Positions 12,038-64,000 of a stretch of 64,000 nucleotides of DNA are shown here, in pieces. Both the position numbers and the translations under genes were made by a program. The notes under the pieces are model-generated. The model did no database searches and had not been told where the DNA came from. It worked only from the letters and a program-made list of their open reading frames with translations. Origin of the DNA: Candidatus Micrarchaeota archaeon (GTDB lineage Archaea > Micrarchaeota > Micrarchaeia > Micrarchaeales > Micrarchaeaceae); assembly GCA_964433165.1 (NCBI GenBank), contig CAYSQH010000001.1:5823-69822 (forward strand). The letters are read 5' to 3'. Within the stretch, counting starts at the first letter, position 1; the number at the start of each line of letters is the position of its first letter.

Positions 12038-13066
12038 TTACAGGCTCTCCAGCCCTGCTATGTACGATGGGTCGGCATGGCTCTGGTCTAGCAGGGACGA
12101 TGCGGTGCCGAACTTGGGCTTCACTCCAGTAACTATGGACATCACCCTTATCTGGTCTTTGAATGTCGGCTCAAGCCTTGCACCAAATATGACGTTCGCG
12201 TTGTCGGATATCTGCTCCGTTACTCCAGCACCGACTGAGGTCGCCTCCTGGATCGTCAGACCGGTGCCTCCTGTCACGTGGACCAGAGCACTCTTAGCAC
12301 CCTCCATGTCGACATCGAGCAGCGGATGGGCTACCGTTGACCTTACCGCCTTGTCCACCTTGTCGGTTCCCGCGCCGTGGCCTATGTTTATCATCGCGGT
12401 CCCCGAATTCCCGAGTATTGACCTTACGTCGGCATAGTCTAGGTTTATCAGGCTCGGCATCGTGATCGTGTCCGCTATCCCCCTCACCGCATTGGATGCT
12501 ATGCTGTCTATCAGGTCGAAGGCCTTCTCTATTGGAAGGTTGGGCGCGTAGCTGAGCAGCCTGTCGTTCTCGATTATTACGGTGGTATCGGCGTACTTGC
12601 TGAGCTGCTCTATGCTCCAGTCGGCCTTCTTCTTTCTGCTTCTCTCAAGCGCGAACGGGTATGTTACGAATGCGACGGCCAGTGCTCCCTCCTCCTTTGC
12701 TATCTCTGCAATGACAGGCGCTGATCCGCCACCTGTTCCGCCGCCCATTCCTGCCGCTATGAACACTATATGGTAACCGCTTATCGCCTTCCTTATCTCG
12801 TCCCTGCTCGCATCGGCAGCCTTGGCCCCCATCTCCGGGAATCCTCCTGCGCCCTGGCCCCTTGTTATCTGCCCGCCGATGAGCATCCTCTTGTGGGCAT
12901 GGACTATGCTAAGGTGCTTGGCGTCAGTGTTTATTGCTATGGTGGTGGCACTCTTTATCCCATTGGTATACAACCGGTTTACAAGGTTGCTTCCCTGCCC
13001 GCCTGCACCAACAACTGCCAGCTTAACGGTAAAATCTTCTCCCTGATCGTACATCCAATCCACCAT
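12038..13066 (-). CDS. ftsZ: cell division GTPase FtsZ (paralog A)
   Basis: Contains GAGGQGSN, the tubulin signature GMGGGTGGGSAPVIA, and NLDYADV. Confidence 0.93.
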   Translation of the reverse strand: MVDWMYDQGEDFTVKLAVVGAGGQGSNLVNRLYTNGIKSATTIAINTDAKHLSIVHAHKRMLIGGQITRGQGAGGFPEMGAKAADASRDEIRKAISGYHIVFIAAGMGGGTGGGSAPVIAEIAKEEGALAVAFVTYPFALERSRKKKADWSIEQLSKYADTTVIIENDRLLSYAPNLPIEKAFDLIDSIASNAVRGIADTITMPSLINLDYADVRSILGNSGTAMINIGHGAGTDKVDKAVRSTVAHPLLDVDMEGAKSALVHVTGGTGLTIQEATSVGAGVTEQISDNANVIFGARLEPTFKDQIRVMSIVTGVKPKFGTASSLLDQSHADPSYIAGLESL

Positions 13067-13103: not shown

Positions 13104-14171
13104 TCAGCCTACCATTTCCAGACCATCGTATGAGGTCGACTTCCTGTCCTCGAGCTTCCCGGCTATGCTTGATCCGGTTATTCCCGTGACTATCGCGACT
13201 ATCTCTATCTGGTCCTCGTATCCAGGCATAAGGCGCGCGCCCCACTTGACGTTGCTGTTGGGGTCCATCTTGTCGGATATTATCTCCCCGGCCTTGATCG
13301 CATCGCCTATCGTCATTGATGCTCCTCCAGATATGTGTATGAGCGCTCCTGATGCACCCTCGAAGTCCACATCAAGCAGCTTGTTCTTCAGCACTCCATC
13401 GGATGCGGCATCGACCTTGTTGGTCCCCCTTCCCGAGCCCACGGCTATGAATCCCACTCCGCCGTTGCCCATGATTGACCTTACGTCCGCGAAGTCTATG
13501 TTTATAAGGCTCGGCTGCGTTATCGTCCATACCAGTCCGCCGACTGCCTTAGCAAGCACCTCGTCCGCAAGGGCGAATGCCTGGTCTATCGGCAGGTTTG
13601 GCACCAGCTTTACCAGACGGTTGTTGTCCAGTATTATGACGCTGTCGCAGTTCTTCCTCAGCCTCTGGATTCCCTCCTCGGCCTTTACCTTTCGCACCCT
13701 CTCAAGGTCGAACGGGTATGTCACGAACGCCACAACTATCGCGCCCTGCTCCTTGGCTATCTGCGCCGCGACGGATATGCTTCCGGAGCCCGTTCCACCT
13801 CCCATTCCGCAGCACAGGAATGCAAGCTGCGTATTGGCGAACACCTGCTCGAGCAGGTTCCTGTCGACCTCAGCAGCCTTGGCGCCTATCGTCGGATCTC
13901 CACCTGCACCCAGGCCCTTCGTCAGGGTCCTCCCAATCATAACCTTCTTGATTCGGTCGTCGATTATCTTGAAATGCTGCGCGTCGGTGTTGACTGCCAC
14001 GAAGTCGGTTCCCTTGACTCCTATCTTGAGCAGCCGGTTCACTATGTTGCAGCCTGCGCCTCCAAAACCTGCAGTGACTATCTTAATCTCAGATGAGCTG
14101 AATTCGTCACCCACGTTCCCACTCTGTCCTCCAGATCCTCCTCCAAATACGTCGTGTACCATATCGGTCAT
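13104..14171 (-). CDS. ftsZ: cell division GTPase FtsZ (paralog B)
   Basis: Contains GFGGAGCN, GMGGGTGSGSISVAA and NIDFADV. It lies 38 nt upstream of paralog A. Confidence 0.93.
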   Translation of the reverse strand: MTDMVHDVFGGGSGGQSGNVGDEFSSSEIKIVTAGFGGAGCNIVNRLLKIGVKGTDFVAVNTDAQHFKIIDDRIKKVMIGRTLTKGLGAGGDPTIGAKAAEVDRNLLEQVFANTQLAFLCCGMGGGTGSGSISVAAQIAKEQGAIVVAFVTYPFDLERVRKVKAEEGIQRLRKNCDSVIILDNNRLVKLVPNLPIDQAFALADEVLAKAVGGLVWTITQPSLINIDFADVRSIMGNGGVGFIAVGSGRGTNKVDAASDGVLKNKLLDVDFEGASGALIHISGGASMTIGDAIKAGEIISDKMDPNSNVKWGARLMPGYEDQIEIVAIVTGITGSSIAGKLEDRKSTSYDGLEMVG

Positions 14172-34468: not shown

Positions 34469-35452
34469 TCATAAATGCACAAGGTAGATGATCCCGTAAT
34501 ATGAGGCGAGCGCAACCAATATGCCGAACAGCAGGGGAGGTATCGCAGGGAGGGCTCGGCGATATTTCCTCAATATCAGCAGTGTGAGTATCAATCCGAA
34601 TATCGCGCCTATTATGACCACGAAGCTCAGCACGAAGCTGAACTGGACCTTGAATGCCGCTATGGCCAGCATCAATGGCATGGCAAGATCCCCTGTGCCA
34701 AGCGCGGTCCTTGCGGACATCGGGACCATGTCCTTGCCCAGACCCTTGGGGAGGTGCTGCGGAGCCTTCCGCTTCGCTATCCTGTACTCCTTCAGCTGGC
34801 TGCTGCTGAGCGATGATGAGGGAAAGGCCTCAACCTCGTTGACCATTACCAGGAACGAGAGGTTCTTCGCTATAGCCATGTCCCCGAGCGCTATCATGTG
34901 CTTGGTCACGAACACCGCAATGTAATCGTAGACAGCGAGCAGCACCATGAATATCATCGCTGCGAGGAAGCTGAAGCTTATCCCTAGTACTAGACCCACG
35001 CCTATGCTCGCTATTATCGCCGTGAGGTTCCTCAGGGAAGGCCTCTTGTACTTCGCTATTATTAGGCCAAGGGCGCAAGCTATCGCAAGTATGTTCGCCA
35101 ACATGTTGCCACTGCCGAACAGGGCTGCGAATGCGGATCCCGTCAGGGAGGCTATCGCGACGAGGAAGAATATGAAGGATGCTATGACAACGACAGCGCC
35201 CTCAAGCAACAGGAACAGCTTGTCGCCCTTGTACAGCTTGAATATGAGTAGGAGCACCACGGACAGCACGATTATGTACCCTATGTAGAACAGGGCATTG
35301 AATGACGACGACACTGTCTGAGCCGCTGTCGCCTGCTGCCCGGACACCCCTGTGAACACCTGCGTTGCAAGAAGCAGGCCGGTGAACTGCACTATCATGA
35401 AAATGACAAGAATGTGGAGGAGCTGCCTGTACTCTATTACCCTCAGCGCCAA
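34469..35452 (-). CDS. presenilin/signal-peptide-peptidase homolog (A22 intramembrane aspartyl protease)
   Basis: Polytopic protein with LLAVYDYIAVF (YD), LGTGDLAMP (GxGD) and ALPAIPPLL (PAL-like). Confidence 0.8.
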   Translation of the reverse strand: MALRVIEYRQLLHILVIFMIVQFTGLLLATQVFTGVSGQQATAAQTVSSSFNALFYIGYIIVLSVVLLLIFKLYKGDKLFLLLEGAVVVIASFIFFLVAIASLTGSAFAALFGSGNMLANILAIACALGLIIAKYKRPSLRNLTAIIASIGVGLVLGISFSFLAAMIFMVLLAVYDYIAVFVTKHMIALGDMAIAKNLSFLVMVNEVEAFPSSSLSSSQLKEYRIAKRKAPQHLPKGLGKDMVPMSARTALGTGDLAMPLMLAIAAFKVQFSFVLSFVVIIGAIFGLILTLLILRKYRRALPAIPPLLFGILVALASYYGIIYLVHL

Positions 35453-36103: not shown

Positions 36104-37156
36104 TCAGACGTTGTTCGGTACGTACACCGTGCCGTTCCCGTTGACGAATATCGTATAGGAGGAGCCGATGAACCCCTGGCTCTGACCGGTCTGGTTCAGC
36201 CAGGCAGATACAGTGTATTCGCCTGCACCGTTGCCTTCGATCAACTTCGACATGTTGAATGCCACGAAGAAGTCGCTGCCCTTCGTGTAGTAGCTGTCCG
36301 CCACTATCGTCTGCACGGACTGATAATGATAAAGGGGGCTTCTTGCAATTCCCGCTATCGCCGGTCCGTAACTGTAGTCCGAAGTTCCGTCAAGCTGGGA
36401 TACCGTCATGTTCTGCACAGGGGCATCGTAGTTTATCTCTATTGTTGATAGATTGTACCCGCTTGCTATCCTGCCCTCCAGGTACACCTCATCAGACTTT
36501 GTAATGCCTGGAGTGTCGTTGAGCCACGTTATGTAGTTGTTGACGAAATCCTCAACCAGGTATACCGTGGTGCTATTGTATGCTATCCCTACGGATACCT
36601 GATTGTGGTTCGAGTCTAGTATGTTGTCCCTGTGGCCGTTGTTGCAGCATATGGAGTCGTTGTACATCATGCTGTACTCCATGCTGGCTATCGCATTCGA
36701 CACGTTGACGTTGCCATAGGTCTTGCACAGGGACCCAAGACATGCGCTGACGCCCGATTGGGTATACGCAATGTTCTCCTGCATTGCGCCGAGGCCGCCG
36801 ACCAGGGTGTACCTCATGTATGGCTTCATCCCGTAGATGTCCCAGTGGCTGAAGTAGCCGTTCTGCAGCATGCTATCAGCGTGCTGCTGCGCCGATTCCG
36901 TTGGCGACAGCGTGACGTTCCCAAGACCGTAAGCGTTCCTGTCCTTGTTTATCAGGGATAGGGTATAGTTGACCAGCGGACCAGCCTTCGGCCGCGGATG
37001 CGCGGGAGTCGAATTCGGGAAGTTGAAGTTGCCACCTATGTTGTAGTTGGACAGCATATCCCTTGCTAATTGGAGGAGTGATATTATCTTTGGATAGAAA
37101 ACAATAACCACGATTACCAGCAGCGCCAGCAACAGCAAATCCGAGACTACGCCCAT
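36104..37156 (-). CDS. secreted CAP/SCP/PR1-like (YkwD-type) domain protein with a C-terminal extension
   Basis: Signal anchor LLLLALLVIVVIVF, then AQQHADSMLQNGYFSHWD and GHRDNILDSNHNQVSVGIAY. Confidence 0.7.
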   Translation of the reverse strand: MGVVSDLLLLALLVIVVIVFYPKIISLLQLARDMLSNYNIGGNFNFPNSTPAHPRPKAGPLVNYTLSLINKDRNAYGLGNVTLSPTESAQQHADSMLQNGYFSHWDIYGMKPYMRYTLVGGLGAMQENIAYTQSGVSACLGSLCKTYGNVNVSNAIASMEYSMMYNDSICCNNGHRDNILDSNHNQVSVGIAYNSTTVYLVEDFVNNYITWLNDTPGITKSDEVYLEGRIASGYNLSTIEINYDAPVQNMTVSQLDGTSDYSYGPAIAGIARSPLYHYQSVQTIVADSYYTKGSDFFVAFNMSKLIEGNGAGEYTVSAWLNQTGQSQGFIGSSYTIFVNGNGTVYVPNNV

Positions 37157-60730: not shown

Positions 60731-62032
60731 TCAAAACTTTGAGAACCTTCTCCTCAGGCTCCTGTCATTCTTCATCGTGTCGAATATTTTCCTCATCTTG
60801 TTGAATTCCGATATTAACCCGTTCACCTCCTTTTCCGTTGCCCCGCTCCCAGATGCTATCCTTGATATCCTGGAGTGGTTGTGGAGAAGGCGCTCGTTCT
60901 TCCGTTCCTCTTTCGTCATCGACGATATTATGATCTTGTATCTCTTGAGCTTCTCCTCGCCCTGTTCAAGCATGTCCTTGGGCACGTCAGGCGCGCCGGC
61001 CATCCCGAGTATGTTCTTCAAAGGACCCATGCTTCCCATCGCCTTGAGCTGCGAATAGAAGGTCTCGAAGTTCAGCTCGTCCGATTCGAGCTCCTCAAGC
61101 CTCATGCCGGATTCCTTTATCGCGGTCTGGACGTGCTCCACTAGGGATTTTATGTCAGGCACGCCGAGGAGCCCGCCGATGAATTTGTCGGAATCGAACG
61201 GCTCTATGCTGCCCAGTTTCTCCCCTGTGCCTATGAACATCACCTGCGCATGCGCCGCGGCCGCGGCGGAAAGGGCGCCGCCGCCCTTGCCGGAGCCATC
61301 CATCTTTGTTATTATAACTCCGGAGATTTTCACGCTCCTGTCGAATTCCCTTGCCTGCCTTCCGGCTATCTGCCCCGCATCAGCACTGACCACGAGTATC
61401 TTCTCGTCAGGAGCGGAGCTCGCCGCTACCGCTTTCAGTTCCGTTGTCAGCTGGTCGTCAAGGGCGTTCCTGCCGCTAGTGTCGAATATCACTACCTGCT
61501 TGTCCTTGAACTTCTCCGACGCCTTTTTCGCAATGTCAGCCGCATCCGTGCTGTTCTCTATCCCGAAGAATGCCACATTGGCCTGGCTGGCTAGGGTCTC
61601 AAGCTGCCTGTATGCTGCTGGTCTCGTGACGTCGCAGCATACGACCGCCGCGCTCAGACCCCTGTCCTGGTAGAACTTCGCCAGCTTCGCGGCCATGGTT
61701 GTCTTTCCAGATCCGTACAGGCCCATGAGGAGTATCCGGTGCACAGCGAGCTTCGGCACGTATTTCGGGCCGACCATCCTGAGAAGCCCATCGTAAACAA
61801 GGTTCGTTATGTAATCCTTATGGCTCAGGCCCTTCGGCGGCTTGCTTCTGAGCGCTGCATCCTCTATCCCTTTCGTGAACTCTAGCACTAGCTTTACCTC
61901 AACGTCGGAGCTAAGGAGTATCTTCTGCAGCTCCTTATTGAATTCCTTTATGGTTGCGGCATCGATTATCGTGGCGCGCGTAAGCTTCGCTATGGCCTTT
62001 CTGAGACCTTCCCCTAGGTCCATTACTATCAT
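60731..62032 (-). CDS. srp54: signal recognition particle protein SRP54
   Basis: GLYGSGKTTMAAKLA, DTSGR and TKMDG, plus a Met-rich M domain. Confidence 0.95.
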   Translation of the reverse strand: MIVMDLGEGLRKAIAKLTRATIIDAATIKEFNKELQKILLSSDVEVKLVLEFTKGIEDAALRSKPPKGLSHKDYITNLVYDGLLRMVGPKYVPKLAVHRILLMGLYGSGKTTMAAKLAKFYQDRGLSAAVVCCDVTRPAAYRQLETLASQANVAFFGIENSTDAADIAKKASEKFKDKQVVIFDTSGRNALDDQLTTELKAVAASSAPDEKILVVSADAGQIAGRQAREFDRSVKISGVIITKMDGSGKGGGALSAAAAAHAQVMFIGTGEKLGSIEPFDSDKFIGGLLGVPDIKSLVEHVQTAIKESGMRLEELESDELNFETFYSQLKAMGSMGPLKNILGMAGAPDVPKDMLEQGEEKLKRYKIIISSMTKEERKNERLLHNHSRISRIASGSGATEKEVNGLISEFNKMRKIFDTMKNDRSLRRRFSKF

Positions 62033-62074: not shown

Positions 62075-63202
62075 TTGAAGCTTGTAATAGCGCAGTCGAA
62101 TCTGACGCTAAAGGGCGGCGCGGAGCGCGTTCTGCTCAAGATCGCGGAGCGCTACAAGGCAAAGATATACACCGCGGAATACGACCCAACAAATACCTTC
62201 GAGGGCTTCAAGGACCTGGAGGTGGAGGTAATAGGCAAGAAATATGGGATATTGCCATATGGCCGGGCGGCACAGGGCCTCAACTACGGCTTATCCTTCT
62301 ACAATCTAACGCTGAAGGATGATTACGACGTGATAAACCCTCACATGGCGCCAAGCCACTGGATACGCAACCATAACGAAAGGGTACTGTGGTACTGCCA
62401 TACGCCCCTAAGGGACATATACGACCTTTACCATTACAGACTGTCATTGAAGAAGCTGCACCAGAAGCCGGTCCACATAATAGGCGCAAGGGTCGTGCGC
62501 GGCATGGACCAGAAGGTAACCAAAAGGATAGAGACGATAGTGGCGAACAGCTACAACACGCGCTCGAGAGTCGTTAAATACTACAACAGGCCCGACGCGA
62601 CGGTGCTTGGGGGCGGCGTCGAGTACGAGAAGTTCAGGCACGGCAGCGACGATAAGTATTTCCTTTATCCGTCGAGGATAAGCCCGAACAAGAGGCAGGA
62701 CTACGCGATACGCGCATTCAGCATCTTCAAGAGGCAGGTGAAGGGATACAGGCTGGTGCTTGTCGGCGCGGTATCAAAGGACAGGTTCTACCATAATTAC
62801 TACAAGAATGTAGCCGCGCTGGCCAAGGCTGTTGGGGACGTTGATATTATAACCGATGCCGATGAGAAAAGGCTTAGGGGGCTGTACGCCAACTGCACAG
62901 CAGTGCTCTACACGCCCATGAACGAGGATTATGGTCTGGTCCCCCTTGAGGGCATGTCCAGCGGCAAGCCGATAATAGGGGTAAGGGAAGGCGGCATAAA
63001 GGAAACCGTGGAGGACGGAGAAACCGGGATGCTTGTAGACAGCATAGATGGTATGGGGAACGCAATGGCGGAGATCGCGGGGAACCCAAAGATTGCAGAG
63101 GCGATGGGGAGGAAAGGCAGGAAAAGGGTCGTTAAGCACTACTCCTGGGCTAGGTTTTTCAAGGAGTTCGACAAGATCCTCAGAAGCGTGAAGAGAGGCT
63201 GA
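62075..63202 (+). CDS. glycosyltransferase, GT4 (group 1) family
   Basis: GGAERVLL at the N-terminus and EDYGLVPLEGMSSGKPIIGVREGGIKETVEDGETGMLV (the E-x7-E region). The start codon is TTG. Confidence 0.85.
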   Translation: MKLVIAQSNLTLKGGAERVLLKIAERYKAKIYTAEYDPTNTFEGFKDLEVEVIGKKYGILPYGRAAQGLNYGLSFYNLTLKDDYDVINPHMAPSHWIRNHNERVLWYCHTPLRDIYDLYHYRLSLKKLHQKPVHIIGARVVRGMDQKVTKRIETIVANSYNTRSRVVKYYNRPDATVLGGGVEYEKFRHGSDDKYFLYPSRISPNKRQDYAIRAFSIFKRQVKGYRLVLVGAVSKDRFYHNYYKNVAALAKAVGDVDIITDADEKRLRGLYANCTAVLYTPMNEDYGLVPLEGMSSGKPIIGVREGGIKETVEDGETGMLVDSIDGMGNAMAEIAGNPKIAEAMGRKGRKRVVKHYSWARFFKEFDKILRSVKRG

Positions 63203-63218: not shown

Positions 63219-63551
63219 TTACTTCGGCTTGTCAGAGTTCAGGGATATGACGTATTTTGATATTACCTTCGAGGCGTAGTCAAGCACTTTCTTTATGTTC
63301 GCCTCAGTGCTGGTCCCGGTGCATATCATCTTCCCGTTCTTGAAGAGTATTATTACGGCTTTTGGCTCCTGTATCCTGAATATAGCGCCAGGGAATTGCT
63401 CAGGCTCATAATCGACCGCCTTTACCTCCTTCGAGAGGGCGTACAGGTCTATAGTAGCATGAAGGTCCGCACTAACCACGATGTTCTGTATCTTTATCGG
63501 CGGCGATTTTATCGGCCCGCCGAGGCCGCCTTTCTTTGCCGTCAGCAACAC
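63219..63551 (-). CDS. single-repeat TATA-binding-protein (TBP) domain protein
   Basis: The 110-aa protein reads [71 protein letters not shown]. This is collinear with one TBP repeat (remembered P. woesei repeat 2: [55 protein letters not shown]). The start is GTG at 63551. Confidence 0.8.
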   Translation of the reverse strand: [110 protein letters not shown]

Positions 63552-63577
63552 CTTACGTTATTATTGTACCAGAAAGC

Positions 63578-63585
63578 TTTATATA
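63578..63585 (-). promoter_or_regulatory. TATA box (TATATAAA) of the single-repeat TBP gene
   Basis: The plus-strand tttatata lies 27 nt upstream of the GTG start, which implies a leaderless or near-leaderless transcript. Confidence 0.55.
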
Positions 63586-63659
63586 GGGATGTTAGCGGGC
63601 GCAGAACAGGCATCATGGCATGGTTTTATAAGATTTCGACGGCATTCCTATGCATATAT

Positions 63660-64000
63660 ATGAACGGCAGGGTTTCGATAATTGGCGCGGGCCTGGTCGG
63701 CCTATGCCTCGCAAAAGACCTCGCAGAGCGCGGGATAGAGGTCGACGTCTTCGATTCTAAGAGTGATGTGTCCGAGGGGGCGGCCAGAGCCTCCGGGATC
63801 TTCTCAGCAAGCGGCATGGAAAGGGTAGGGATAGAACCAGGGGAATCAATGCTCAATACGCTGGATGGCGCCTTCGTTCATGCCGGCGGGGAAAGGCTCA
63901 GGGTCAAGTCCGGAAGAACCATGGCCTACGTTGCCGACAGAGGCATGCTCGCGAAGATATGCAAGAGAAATGCGGAGGATGCAGGGGCCAGGATTAACCT
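63660..64000 (+). CDS. FAD-dependent oxidoreductase (geranylgeranyl reductase-like), 3' end outside the window
   Basis: Manual translation gives MNGRVSIIGAGLVGLCLAKDLAERGIEVDVFDSK (the GxGxxG-...-D dinucleotide fold). The frame is open to the window edge. Confidence 0.65.
   Translation, partial: MNGRVSIIGAGLVGLCLAKDLAERGIEVDVFDSKSDVSEGAARASGIFSASGMERVGIEPGESMLNTLDGAFVHAGGERLRVKSGRTMAYVADRGMLAKICKRNAEDAGARIN

Follow-up and report, generated by a model that had tools for sequence, protein, structure and literature searches.

To our knowledge, every known TATA-binding protein (TBP) has two repeats, and the question raised by the present locus is what a gene for only one such repeat, with neighbours and a promoter of its own, may be doing in an archaeal genome. 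One TBP repeat makes up five of the ten strands of the saddle, and a half-TBP must therefore pair to act as a TBP, a dimeric saddle being the only reasonable way in which it would do so. Accordingly, the architecture of the gene, its spread among relatives, the possible partner of its product and the fate of the ordinary TBP gene in the same genomes are considered below.

The half-TBP gene and its promoter

The window, i.e., the whole stretch of 64,000 nucleotides that was analysed, contains on the minus strand, at 63219..63551, an ORF with a GTG start and a stop codon at 63219-63221 that encodes a protein of 110 aa; a TTG one codon later is also possible as the start, as in a 97%-identical homologue of 109 aa (P0001). 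The single TBP repeat occupies residues 19-100 (63252..63497, minus strand) with the succession of elements S1-H1-S2-S3-S4-S5-H2, as delimited by PF00352, the AF2 model and Foldseek. It is preceded by a basic tail of residues 1-18 (63498..63551, minus strand), which the family alignment sets apart and which is Gly/Lys-rich, as described before, and followed by a C-terminal tail of residues 101-110 (63222..63251, minus strand), which opens with the conserved V-I of a K-Y-V-I motif and is then variable.

The protein belongs to the TBP domain family PF00352: the Pfam search gave one TBP domain, with residues 19-100 aligned to profile positions 2-85 of 85 at an E-value of 3.5e-25 and 88.1 bits against a cut-off of 22.9. 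All ten NCBIfam models of full-length TBP were matched by the half-TBP in their C-terminal half alone (about positions 91-183), with scores of 67-88 bits that lie far below the cut-offs of 181-347, and both repeats of the solved TBPs 1mp9, 2z8u and 1pcz align onto one identical stretch of the half-TBP. The predicted fold is that of one TBP repeat. An AF2 model from a shallow alignment of the closest relatives only was uninformative (pLDDT 53) and was replaced by one from a deeper alignment that includes a second group of half-TBPs (below) and two-repeat TBPs, with a pLDDT of 85.4; in the Foldseek search of this model against the PDB, the top 44 matches were all TBPs, and the model superposes on one repeat of solved TBPs with an rmsd of 0.7-1.2 A over about 81 residues and a query-normalised TM of about 0.7. 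Neither a second repeat nor a frameshifted remnant was found in the whole 64-kb window by tblastn with the half-TBP, the next match having an E-value of 0.82. Thus, the preliminary description, which had called the gene a stand-alone single-repeat TBP of 110 aa with a single TBP domain and no trace of another repeat, is borne out by the Pfam match, the fold model and the window search alike.

The half-TBP is nevertheless not a canonical TBP, because the tandem two-repeat architecture that defines the latter was checked and is absent. The canonical archaeal TBP (two PF00352 repeats, about 180-200 aa; NCBIfam PRK00394 models, arCOG01764; 1mp9, 1pcz/1ais, 2z8u) belongs to the same family, shares the predicted fold and is about 40-50% identical to the half-TBP as judged by eye in local alignments, or 29-40% in the Foldseek structural alignments; it has the same DNA-contact residues, the same stirrup motif and likewise a TATA-box promoter of its own. 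In contrast to it, the half-TBP has one repeat per chain, could form a saddle only as a dimer, falls far below the NCBIfam cut-offs and is encoded at a locus different from that of the ancestral TBP gene. The DNA-contact residues of the half-TBP presumably correspond to F190/F207, N159 and T215 of yeast TBP, a mapping that we take from the alignment and from TBP-DNA structures.

The promoter noted previously was located as the TATA box TATATAAA at 63578..63585 on the minus strand (read 63585..63578), whose last base lies 27 nt before the G of GTG; the half-TBP mRNA is therefore probably leaderless or has a very short leader. A divergent FAD-dependent oxidoreductase gene starts with an ATG at 63660 on the plus strand and is cut by the end of the window (63660..64000); its TATA box, TTTTATAA, lies at 63624..63631 on the plus strand, 28 nt before the ATG, and the FAD/NAD Rossmann N-terminus of its product matches DAO, FAD_binding_3 and NAD_binding_8 in Pfam. 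On the other side, a convergent GT4 glycosyltransferase gene (62075..63202, plus strand; Pfam Glycos_transf_1 and Glyco_transf_4) has its stop 16 nt from that of the half-TBP, and is followed by the SRP54 gene (60731..62032, minus strand; Pfam), which served as a yardstick of divergence. Both flanking genes had been named correctly, and all three are conserved neighbours. Strict TATA matches stand ahead of 6 of the 66 ORFs in the window, all of them 24-35 nt from the start codon, where about 0.1 would be expected per 6-nt bin. Ordinary TATA promoters are in use in the organism, and this spacing is indirect evidence that TATA DNA may be bound by the half-TBP and TFB/RNAP recruited.

Two families of half-TBPs, apparently in place of the two-repeat TBP

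The half-TBP of the window is referred to below as type A, and a second single-repeat protein as type B. Relatives of the window protein were sought among 5.8 billion proteins, which gave 350 matches (clusters at 90% identity), the best 120 of which were listed; these best 120 of 350 are all of 90-174 aa with one TBP domain each and a core 73-97% identical to that of the window protein, and their named sources are Micrarchaeota, Micrarchaeia or Micrarchaeaceae, besides a few contigs whose labels are probably wrong. The A family has a near-invariant core of about 85 residues, with basic N- and C-terminal tails that differ in length and sequence. The gene order FAD oxidoreductase divergent from the half-TBP, with a convergent GT4 gene and usually SRP54 thereafter, is common to 11 of 11 other A loci, some of them on contigs of 0.94 and 1.2 Mb; DAO was seen in 10 of the 11, the remaining sequence (L038) ending just upstream of the A gene. 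A TATA-like element followed by CTTTC occupies the matching place in most A-orthologue loci that have enough upstream sequence. Over the 11 loci, the half-TBP is 80-92% identical to its counterpart in the window, SRP54 65-74%, GT4 55-70% and the start of the oxidoreductase 43-63%, and the half-TBP is the most conserved gene of the neighbourhood. The A family is therefore large and strongly conserved, and a product of chance in one assembly is excluded; the orthologues that the preliminary description proposed to look for are numerous, and its proviso that a second repeat might have been lost by misassembly is removed by the same architecture and the kept synteny in independent assemblies.

The first protein of type B, P0268, which is 51% identical to A, came to light when 1.84 billion cluster representatives were searched exhaustively with HMMER; it is from a MAG (locus tags KGH98_) that also encodes an A-type protein. 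The B-type half-TBPs (P0268, P0512 and others) have a single Pfam TBP domain each, and the members of the B clusters are of 106-125 aa, one call of 150 aa apart. B resembles A in its single repeat, in the same stirrup and in the same motif FKNGKxICTG; it is about 51-56% identical to A, without conversion tracts between the two, and differs from A in its conserved N-terminal motif PPHKHVVLKPTY, in less conserved helices, in a more conserved sheet and in its place beside the gene for ribosomal protein L21e. The residues N23, V25, F53, F70 and T78, which by alignment match DNA contacts of solved TBPs, among them the pair of intercalating Phe and the Asn and Thr at the centre of the saddle, are invariant in 43 members of the A family and are the same in A and B, and the stirrup motif Y48-I57 (Y-E-P-E-Q-F-P-G) is 100% conserved in both. 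In other archaea, the E, E and Q of the stirrup are found in 84/81/65% of C-terminal repeats vs. 27/56/35% of N-terminal ones, so that E-P-E-x-F-P-G reads as the signature of a C repeat that contacts TFB; since both halves carry this C-repeat-type stirrup, TFB binding looks possible for A and B alike. In relatives, both genes come with TATTTAWA or TATATAAA boxes.

The place of B is of particular weight for the fate of the ordinary TBP gene. P0268 is closest to ordinary TBPs with two repeats (182-203 aa), which come from MAGs under the names Micrarchaeota, Anstonellales, Anstonellaceae and Iainarchaeum; none of the contigs of its best 120 relatives carries A. In a genome of Anstonellales, the sister order, a divergent two-repeat TBP of 193 aa adjoins L21e, and in the KGH98 genome B stands at exactly this L21e place, with no remnant of a second repeat in the 225 nt downstream. 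The L21e/DUF655 context was found at 14 of the 14 B loci examined. Thus, B appears from gene order to hold the ancestral TBP locus, and A to stand at a different one. Neither a B gene nor the L21e cluster lies within the 64-kb window, and B is absent beside L21e in the A-bearing CAVXKI01 (locus L007) and JAGWGP01 (locus L099), where it may have been moved or lost.

Both types were found together in six cases: KGH98/JAGWHI01; M1360/JAKBSM01, with A and B about 290 kb apart on one contig of 940,636 bp; KGI06, whose A ranks second among the matches to the window protein (89% identical); ACREBH, named Micrarchaeaceae; JASHUQ01; and the 483,663-bp contig JAJZAB010000001.1, where the match of A to the contig is putative. 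As these relatives show, A is usually accompanied by a paralogous half-TBP from another place in the genome. For a further scan, which covered one genome per GTDB species, an A+B fusion alignment served as the query, the matches being ranked by score, with two-repeat TBPs in 60 of 80 places; among the matches listed, 19 genomes have A and/or B, 60 have a two-repeat TBP, and the overlap is 0, a supportive figure that rests on the matches listed, the known B of JAGWHI010000008.1 having been missed by them. The closed genome of Ca. Mancarchaeum acidiphilum Mia14 encodes just two members of arCOG01764 (TBP) and a single TFB (PMC5498576, Supplementary Data 4), vs. one member of arCOG01764 in 13 other DPANN genomes (PMC5498576), and the TBP-family pair of Mia14 is presumably A and B. 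In the relatives of the window genome, two half-size genes thus seem to have replaced the full-size TBP gene. The earlier suggestion that the half-TBP might pair or compete with a canonical TBP loses its ground here, as the L21e locus of relatives holds B and none of the 19 genomes with half-TBPs has a two-repeat TBP among the matches listed.

In one study of single-domain TBP cases, these were found in Euryarchaea only (PMC3597702). The halobacterial TbpA has one repeat and clusters with true TBPs (Brindefalk et al. 2013, PMC3597702), but it closely resembles the full-length TBPs that occur alongside it in the same species, and it is non-essential (PMC3597702), whereas no full-length TBP was found, among the matches listed, in the genomes that encode the half-TBP, whose family is old and strongly conserved. 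The monopartite TBP-domain proteins of Thermococcales (e.g., NP_578195), of about 90-100 aa and with a TBP-like fold (PMC3597702, Table 3), are distantly TBP-like, form a cluster of their own and co-exist with a normal TBP (PMC3597702), unlike the half-TBP, which is a close relative of true TBP repeats; in both cases the comparison was made by description. The N-terminal TBP-like domain of RNase HIII is also present in a single copy and belongs to the same fold superfamily, but it sits in a bacterial enzyme of several domains and is not meaningfully similar in sequence to the half-TBP, whose matches to 3asm (RNase HIII) and DUF3378 are weak (E-values of 0.24 and 0.032, respectively).

Probable origin of A and B from a tandem TBP

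TBP is the textbook pseudo-symmetric protein, thought to stem from the duplication and fusion of a homodimeric ancestor, and the preliminary description took a symmetric half-TBP dimer for that ancestor. This goes too far: from the distribution of the half-TBPs and the tree of repeats, the tandem form appears to have been lost secondarily within Micrarchaeia. In the tree of 205 single repeats (83 columns, neighbour-joining on simple distances, 200 bootstraps), A is monophyletic in 196 of 200 bootstraps, B in 199, and the two are sister groups in 157. HMMs of N and C repeats separate them weakly, most members of A scoring 3-6 bits, and most of B 1-3 bits, higher with the C-repeat model (range for B -1.3 to +4.2); strand S1 has Q in A, typical of C repeats, and mostly E in B, typical of N repeats in other archaea. 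A and B are therefore not clearly the two halves of a split gene, since they are sisters and the N-vs-C signal amounts to a few bits, and a clean N/C fission of one TBP gene was not adopted.

The two-repeat TBPs of Micrarchaeota have N and C repeats that are 55-83% identical, vs. 35-55% in other archaea, and within a single gene the two repeats can be identical at the nucleotide level over runs of up to 93, 89 and 80 nt, with third-codon positions that match at up to 88% of the identical residues. Such long runs, together with the third-position matches, indicate gene conversion between the repeats, to judge from these sequences, and the long direct repeats would be a ready substrate for the deletion of exactly one TBP unit. 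Thus, a near-symmetric two-repeat TBP may have collapsed to one repeat in the ancestor of the clade, after which the single-repeat gene would have been duplicated and A and B would have diverged; duplication followed by the loss of one repeat per copy fits equally well. Under either origin, the half-TBPs would be derived proteins, not relics. The position of A and B as sisters implies a single-repeat ancestor, and their common ancestor may thus have been a single-repeat protein, which must have worked as a homodimer. Repeat conversion in the TBPs of Micrarchaeota offers a hint of how a tandem TBP can turn into a single-repeat one and perhaps back.

Possible action of the half-TBPs and its meaning

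The window gene may encode the 'A' chain of a TBP built from two separate half-size proteins, an A·B heterodimer; this is a serious, if tentative, proposal, favoured over an A2 homodimer with the sequences themselves undecided between the two. In a clade of the class Micrarchaeia (order Micrarchaeales, including the family Micrarchaeaceae), the gene for the two-repeat TBP would have gone, the single-repeat B would have taken its place beside L21e, and the paralogue A would have become fixed between the FAD oxidoreductase and GT4. A non-covalent A·B heterodimer would then restore a saddle of ten strands that binds and bends the TATA box by means of its conserved Phe, Asn and Thr residues, and TFB would be recruited by the Y-E-P-E-Q-F-P-G stirrup, A being probably the more constrained half, faintly like a C-terminal repeat. 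The single-repeat architecture, the fold, the conservation, the gene order and the joint presence of A and B in six genomes are observations, whereas it is inferred that the half-TBP dimerises, which partner it takes, and that it binds DNA and TFB.

The pairing of A with B is favoured because both genes have been kept in genomes of about 1 Mb, and because there are 14 fixed differences between A and B in three matched genomes, a complementary pattern of conservation and the faint C-like signature of A. In the helices, A varies in these three genomes at 2 and 5 of 21 sites vs. 10 and 11 in B, whereas in the sheet B varies at 1 of 21 sites vs. 5 in A, and this complementarity may be read as signs of specialisation of the chains. 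Given the paralogous partner in relatives, the A·B heterodimer is at least as likely as the symmetric homodimer that was proposed initially.

The symmetric saddle A2, in the role of the general TBP or of one among two alternative ones, with B as a homodimer of its own or as a dispensable protein and with promoter direction set by TFB and BRE alone, is a possible reading to which we give less credence than to A·B. It is chemically plausible because both chains carry the full TFB-contact motif: each keeps every DNA-contact residue together with E-P-E-Q, found mainly in C repeats elsewhere. The sister clades A and B, with the single-repeat, homodimeric ancestor that they imply, speak for it as well, as do the near-symmetric two-repeat TBPs with their runs of up to 93 nt, which show that a symmetric saddle is tolerated in the phylum, the B slot that is empty in two A-bearing genomes, and the rank of A as the most conserved gene of its neighbourhood. 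However, the retention of both paralogues in six small genomes argues against simple redundancy, and so do the 14 fixed differences in the three matched genomes and the complementary conservation. Paralogues derived from a homodimer often keep both homo- and hetero-association, and a mixture of A/B dimers would therefore be possible along with the favoured A·B form.

It is improbable that A is a regulator that caps B or TFB or takes half of a TATA site and in this way tunes or represses initiation, the working TBP being B2. The ancestral TBP locus would, on this account, be held by the working protein B, A shows an unusual degree of conservation in the helices of its convex surface, as is expected of a protein-protein interface, and single-domain, non-essential TBP paralogues are known in Halobacteria (TbpA; PMC3597702); but the DNA-contact residues are all invariant in A, and A is more conserved than B and SRP54, more so than one would usually find for an accessory regulator in a genome of about 1 Mb. 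A still smaller chance is left to A as an accessory of a two-repeat TBP encoded elsewhere in the same genome: two-repeat TBPs are indeed known from Anstonellales, in the same class, and from further MAGs that carry the label Micrarchaeota, yet the genome scan gave no overlap between the 19 genomes with A or B and the 60 with a two-repeat TBP among the matches listed, the syntenic TBP locus is occupied by B, there are only two TBP-family genes in Mia14, and no contig of the best 120 relatives of B also encodes A. Finally, an assembly artefact or a decaying pseudogene, i.e., a truncated TBP without function, is refuted, as the short length of the protein and its label 'hypothetical protein' at NCBI are all that speaks for it, and the same architecture recurs in the best 120 of 350 homologues from independent assemblies, with contigs of 0.94 and 1.2 Mb among them, with conserved synteny and promoter and under strong purifying selection.

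The NCBI pipeline labels the half-TBPs 'hypothetical protein', and KO-based surveys count them as ordinary TBP; neither label shows the odd single-repeat architecture. A survey of DPANN simply counted TBP as present (PMC8407392). No published description of single-repeat TBPs in Micrarchaeota or DPANN was found in the full-text literature searched, which covers few of the subscription journals, and no TBP entries were found in the supplementary text searched for the Ca. Micrarchaeum harzensis paper.

We know of no organism that runs its basal transcription on single-repeat TBP chains. In the bolder form of the A2 reading, Micrarchaeales would be the first known cellular lineage without a two-repeat TBP, with a symmetric A2, polarity set by TFB/BRE only and a B that is specialised or dispensable; this is conceivable but doubtful, and, if true, the A2 homodimer would be a living equivalent of the state assumed before the duplication of TBP. 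The pair of half-TBPs is, in addition, a natural system for testing how TBP arose by duplication. If transcription in Micrarchaeales does depend on a saddle of separate chains, such as the favoured A·B, it would become testable whether a symmetric or two-chain saddle binds and bends TATA DNA, how the direction of a promoter is set when both stirrups can bind TFB, and what the covalent fusion of two TBP repeats adds.

Promoters of the A-type genes and other genes of the window

The region upstream of the A-type gene, which encodes the single-repeat TATA-binding protein (TBP) of the window (63566-63590, minus strand), was compared with the matching upstream regions of the loci L028, L041, L058, L064, L078, L087 and L088. 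A C/G-CTTTC motif is conserved directly 3' of the TATA box in the A-type promoters and could be a regulatory site, and a GGTGAT-like element, found at the start codon or just ahead of it, could serve as a short Shine-Dalgarno sequence. Elsewhere in the window, two neighbouring genes of the same orientation (12038-13066 and 13104-14171, both minus) encode FtsZ paralogues, each with the Tubulin and FtsZ_C domains. The genes for a CAP/cysteine-rich secretory family protein (36104-37156, minus) and a presenilin-type signal-peptide peptidase (34469-35452, minus) are located close together in this small archaeal genome.

Probable exchange between TBP repeats, and a mosaic-like half-TBP

The repeat-versus-repeat comparison of the two-repeat TBP genes from Micrarchaeota MAGs (L017, 4037-4582, and likewise L012, L077, L020 and L033) revealed identical nucleotide runs of 79-93 nt between both repeats of one gene, and the protein identity between the repeats of a single Micrarchaeota TBP reaches 83%, against 35-55% in other archaea. 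Judged from these sequences, the genes look like subjects of ongoing gene conversion between the repeats. The single-repeat TBP P0130 (127 aa), encoded on a 2,054-bp ENA contig, resembles in its sequence a mosaic of the A-type and the B-type, the second half-TBP of the relatives: the initial 31 residues of its core are 97% A-like, and the final 42 residues are 71% B-like versus 50% A-like. This pattern could stem from natural recombination or from a chimeric assembly.

The slot adjoining the L21e gene

The B-type gene occupies the slot adjacent to the ribosomal protein L21e gene in 14 other loci and is absent from this slot in L007 and L099, both from genomes with the A-type gene, where the place is taken by a thermopsin and an AAA_18 protein (L007, CAVXKI010000003.1, 7753-9635) and by an AHSA1-like protein (L099, JAGWGP010000027.1, 3518-3931), respectively. 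In these two genomes, B has either moved elsewhere or been lost.

Database names of the half-TBPs

Micrarchaeota-type synteny together with an A- or B-type half-TBP was also found on contigs deposited under other taxon names, namely Baltobacteraceae bacterium, Acidiferrales bacterium and Marsarchaeota (P0021 on L023, DATLRT010000019.1; P0050; P0053; L032), which are probably mis-binned or mislabelled. The NCBI pipeline names A and B alike 'hypothetical protein' (P0002, P0019, P0045, P0268, P0512 and others), because the half-TBPs score under the NCBIfam TBP cut-offs, and the JGI label is 'TFIID TATA-box-binding protein'. The half-size of both A and B is hidden by the NCBI and JGI labels alike.
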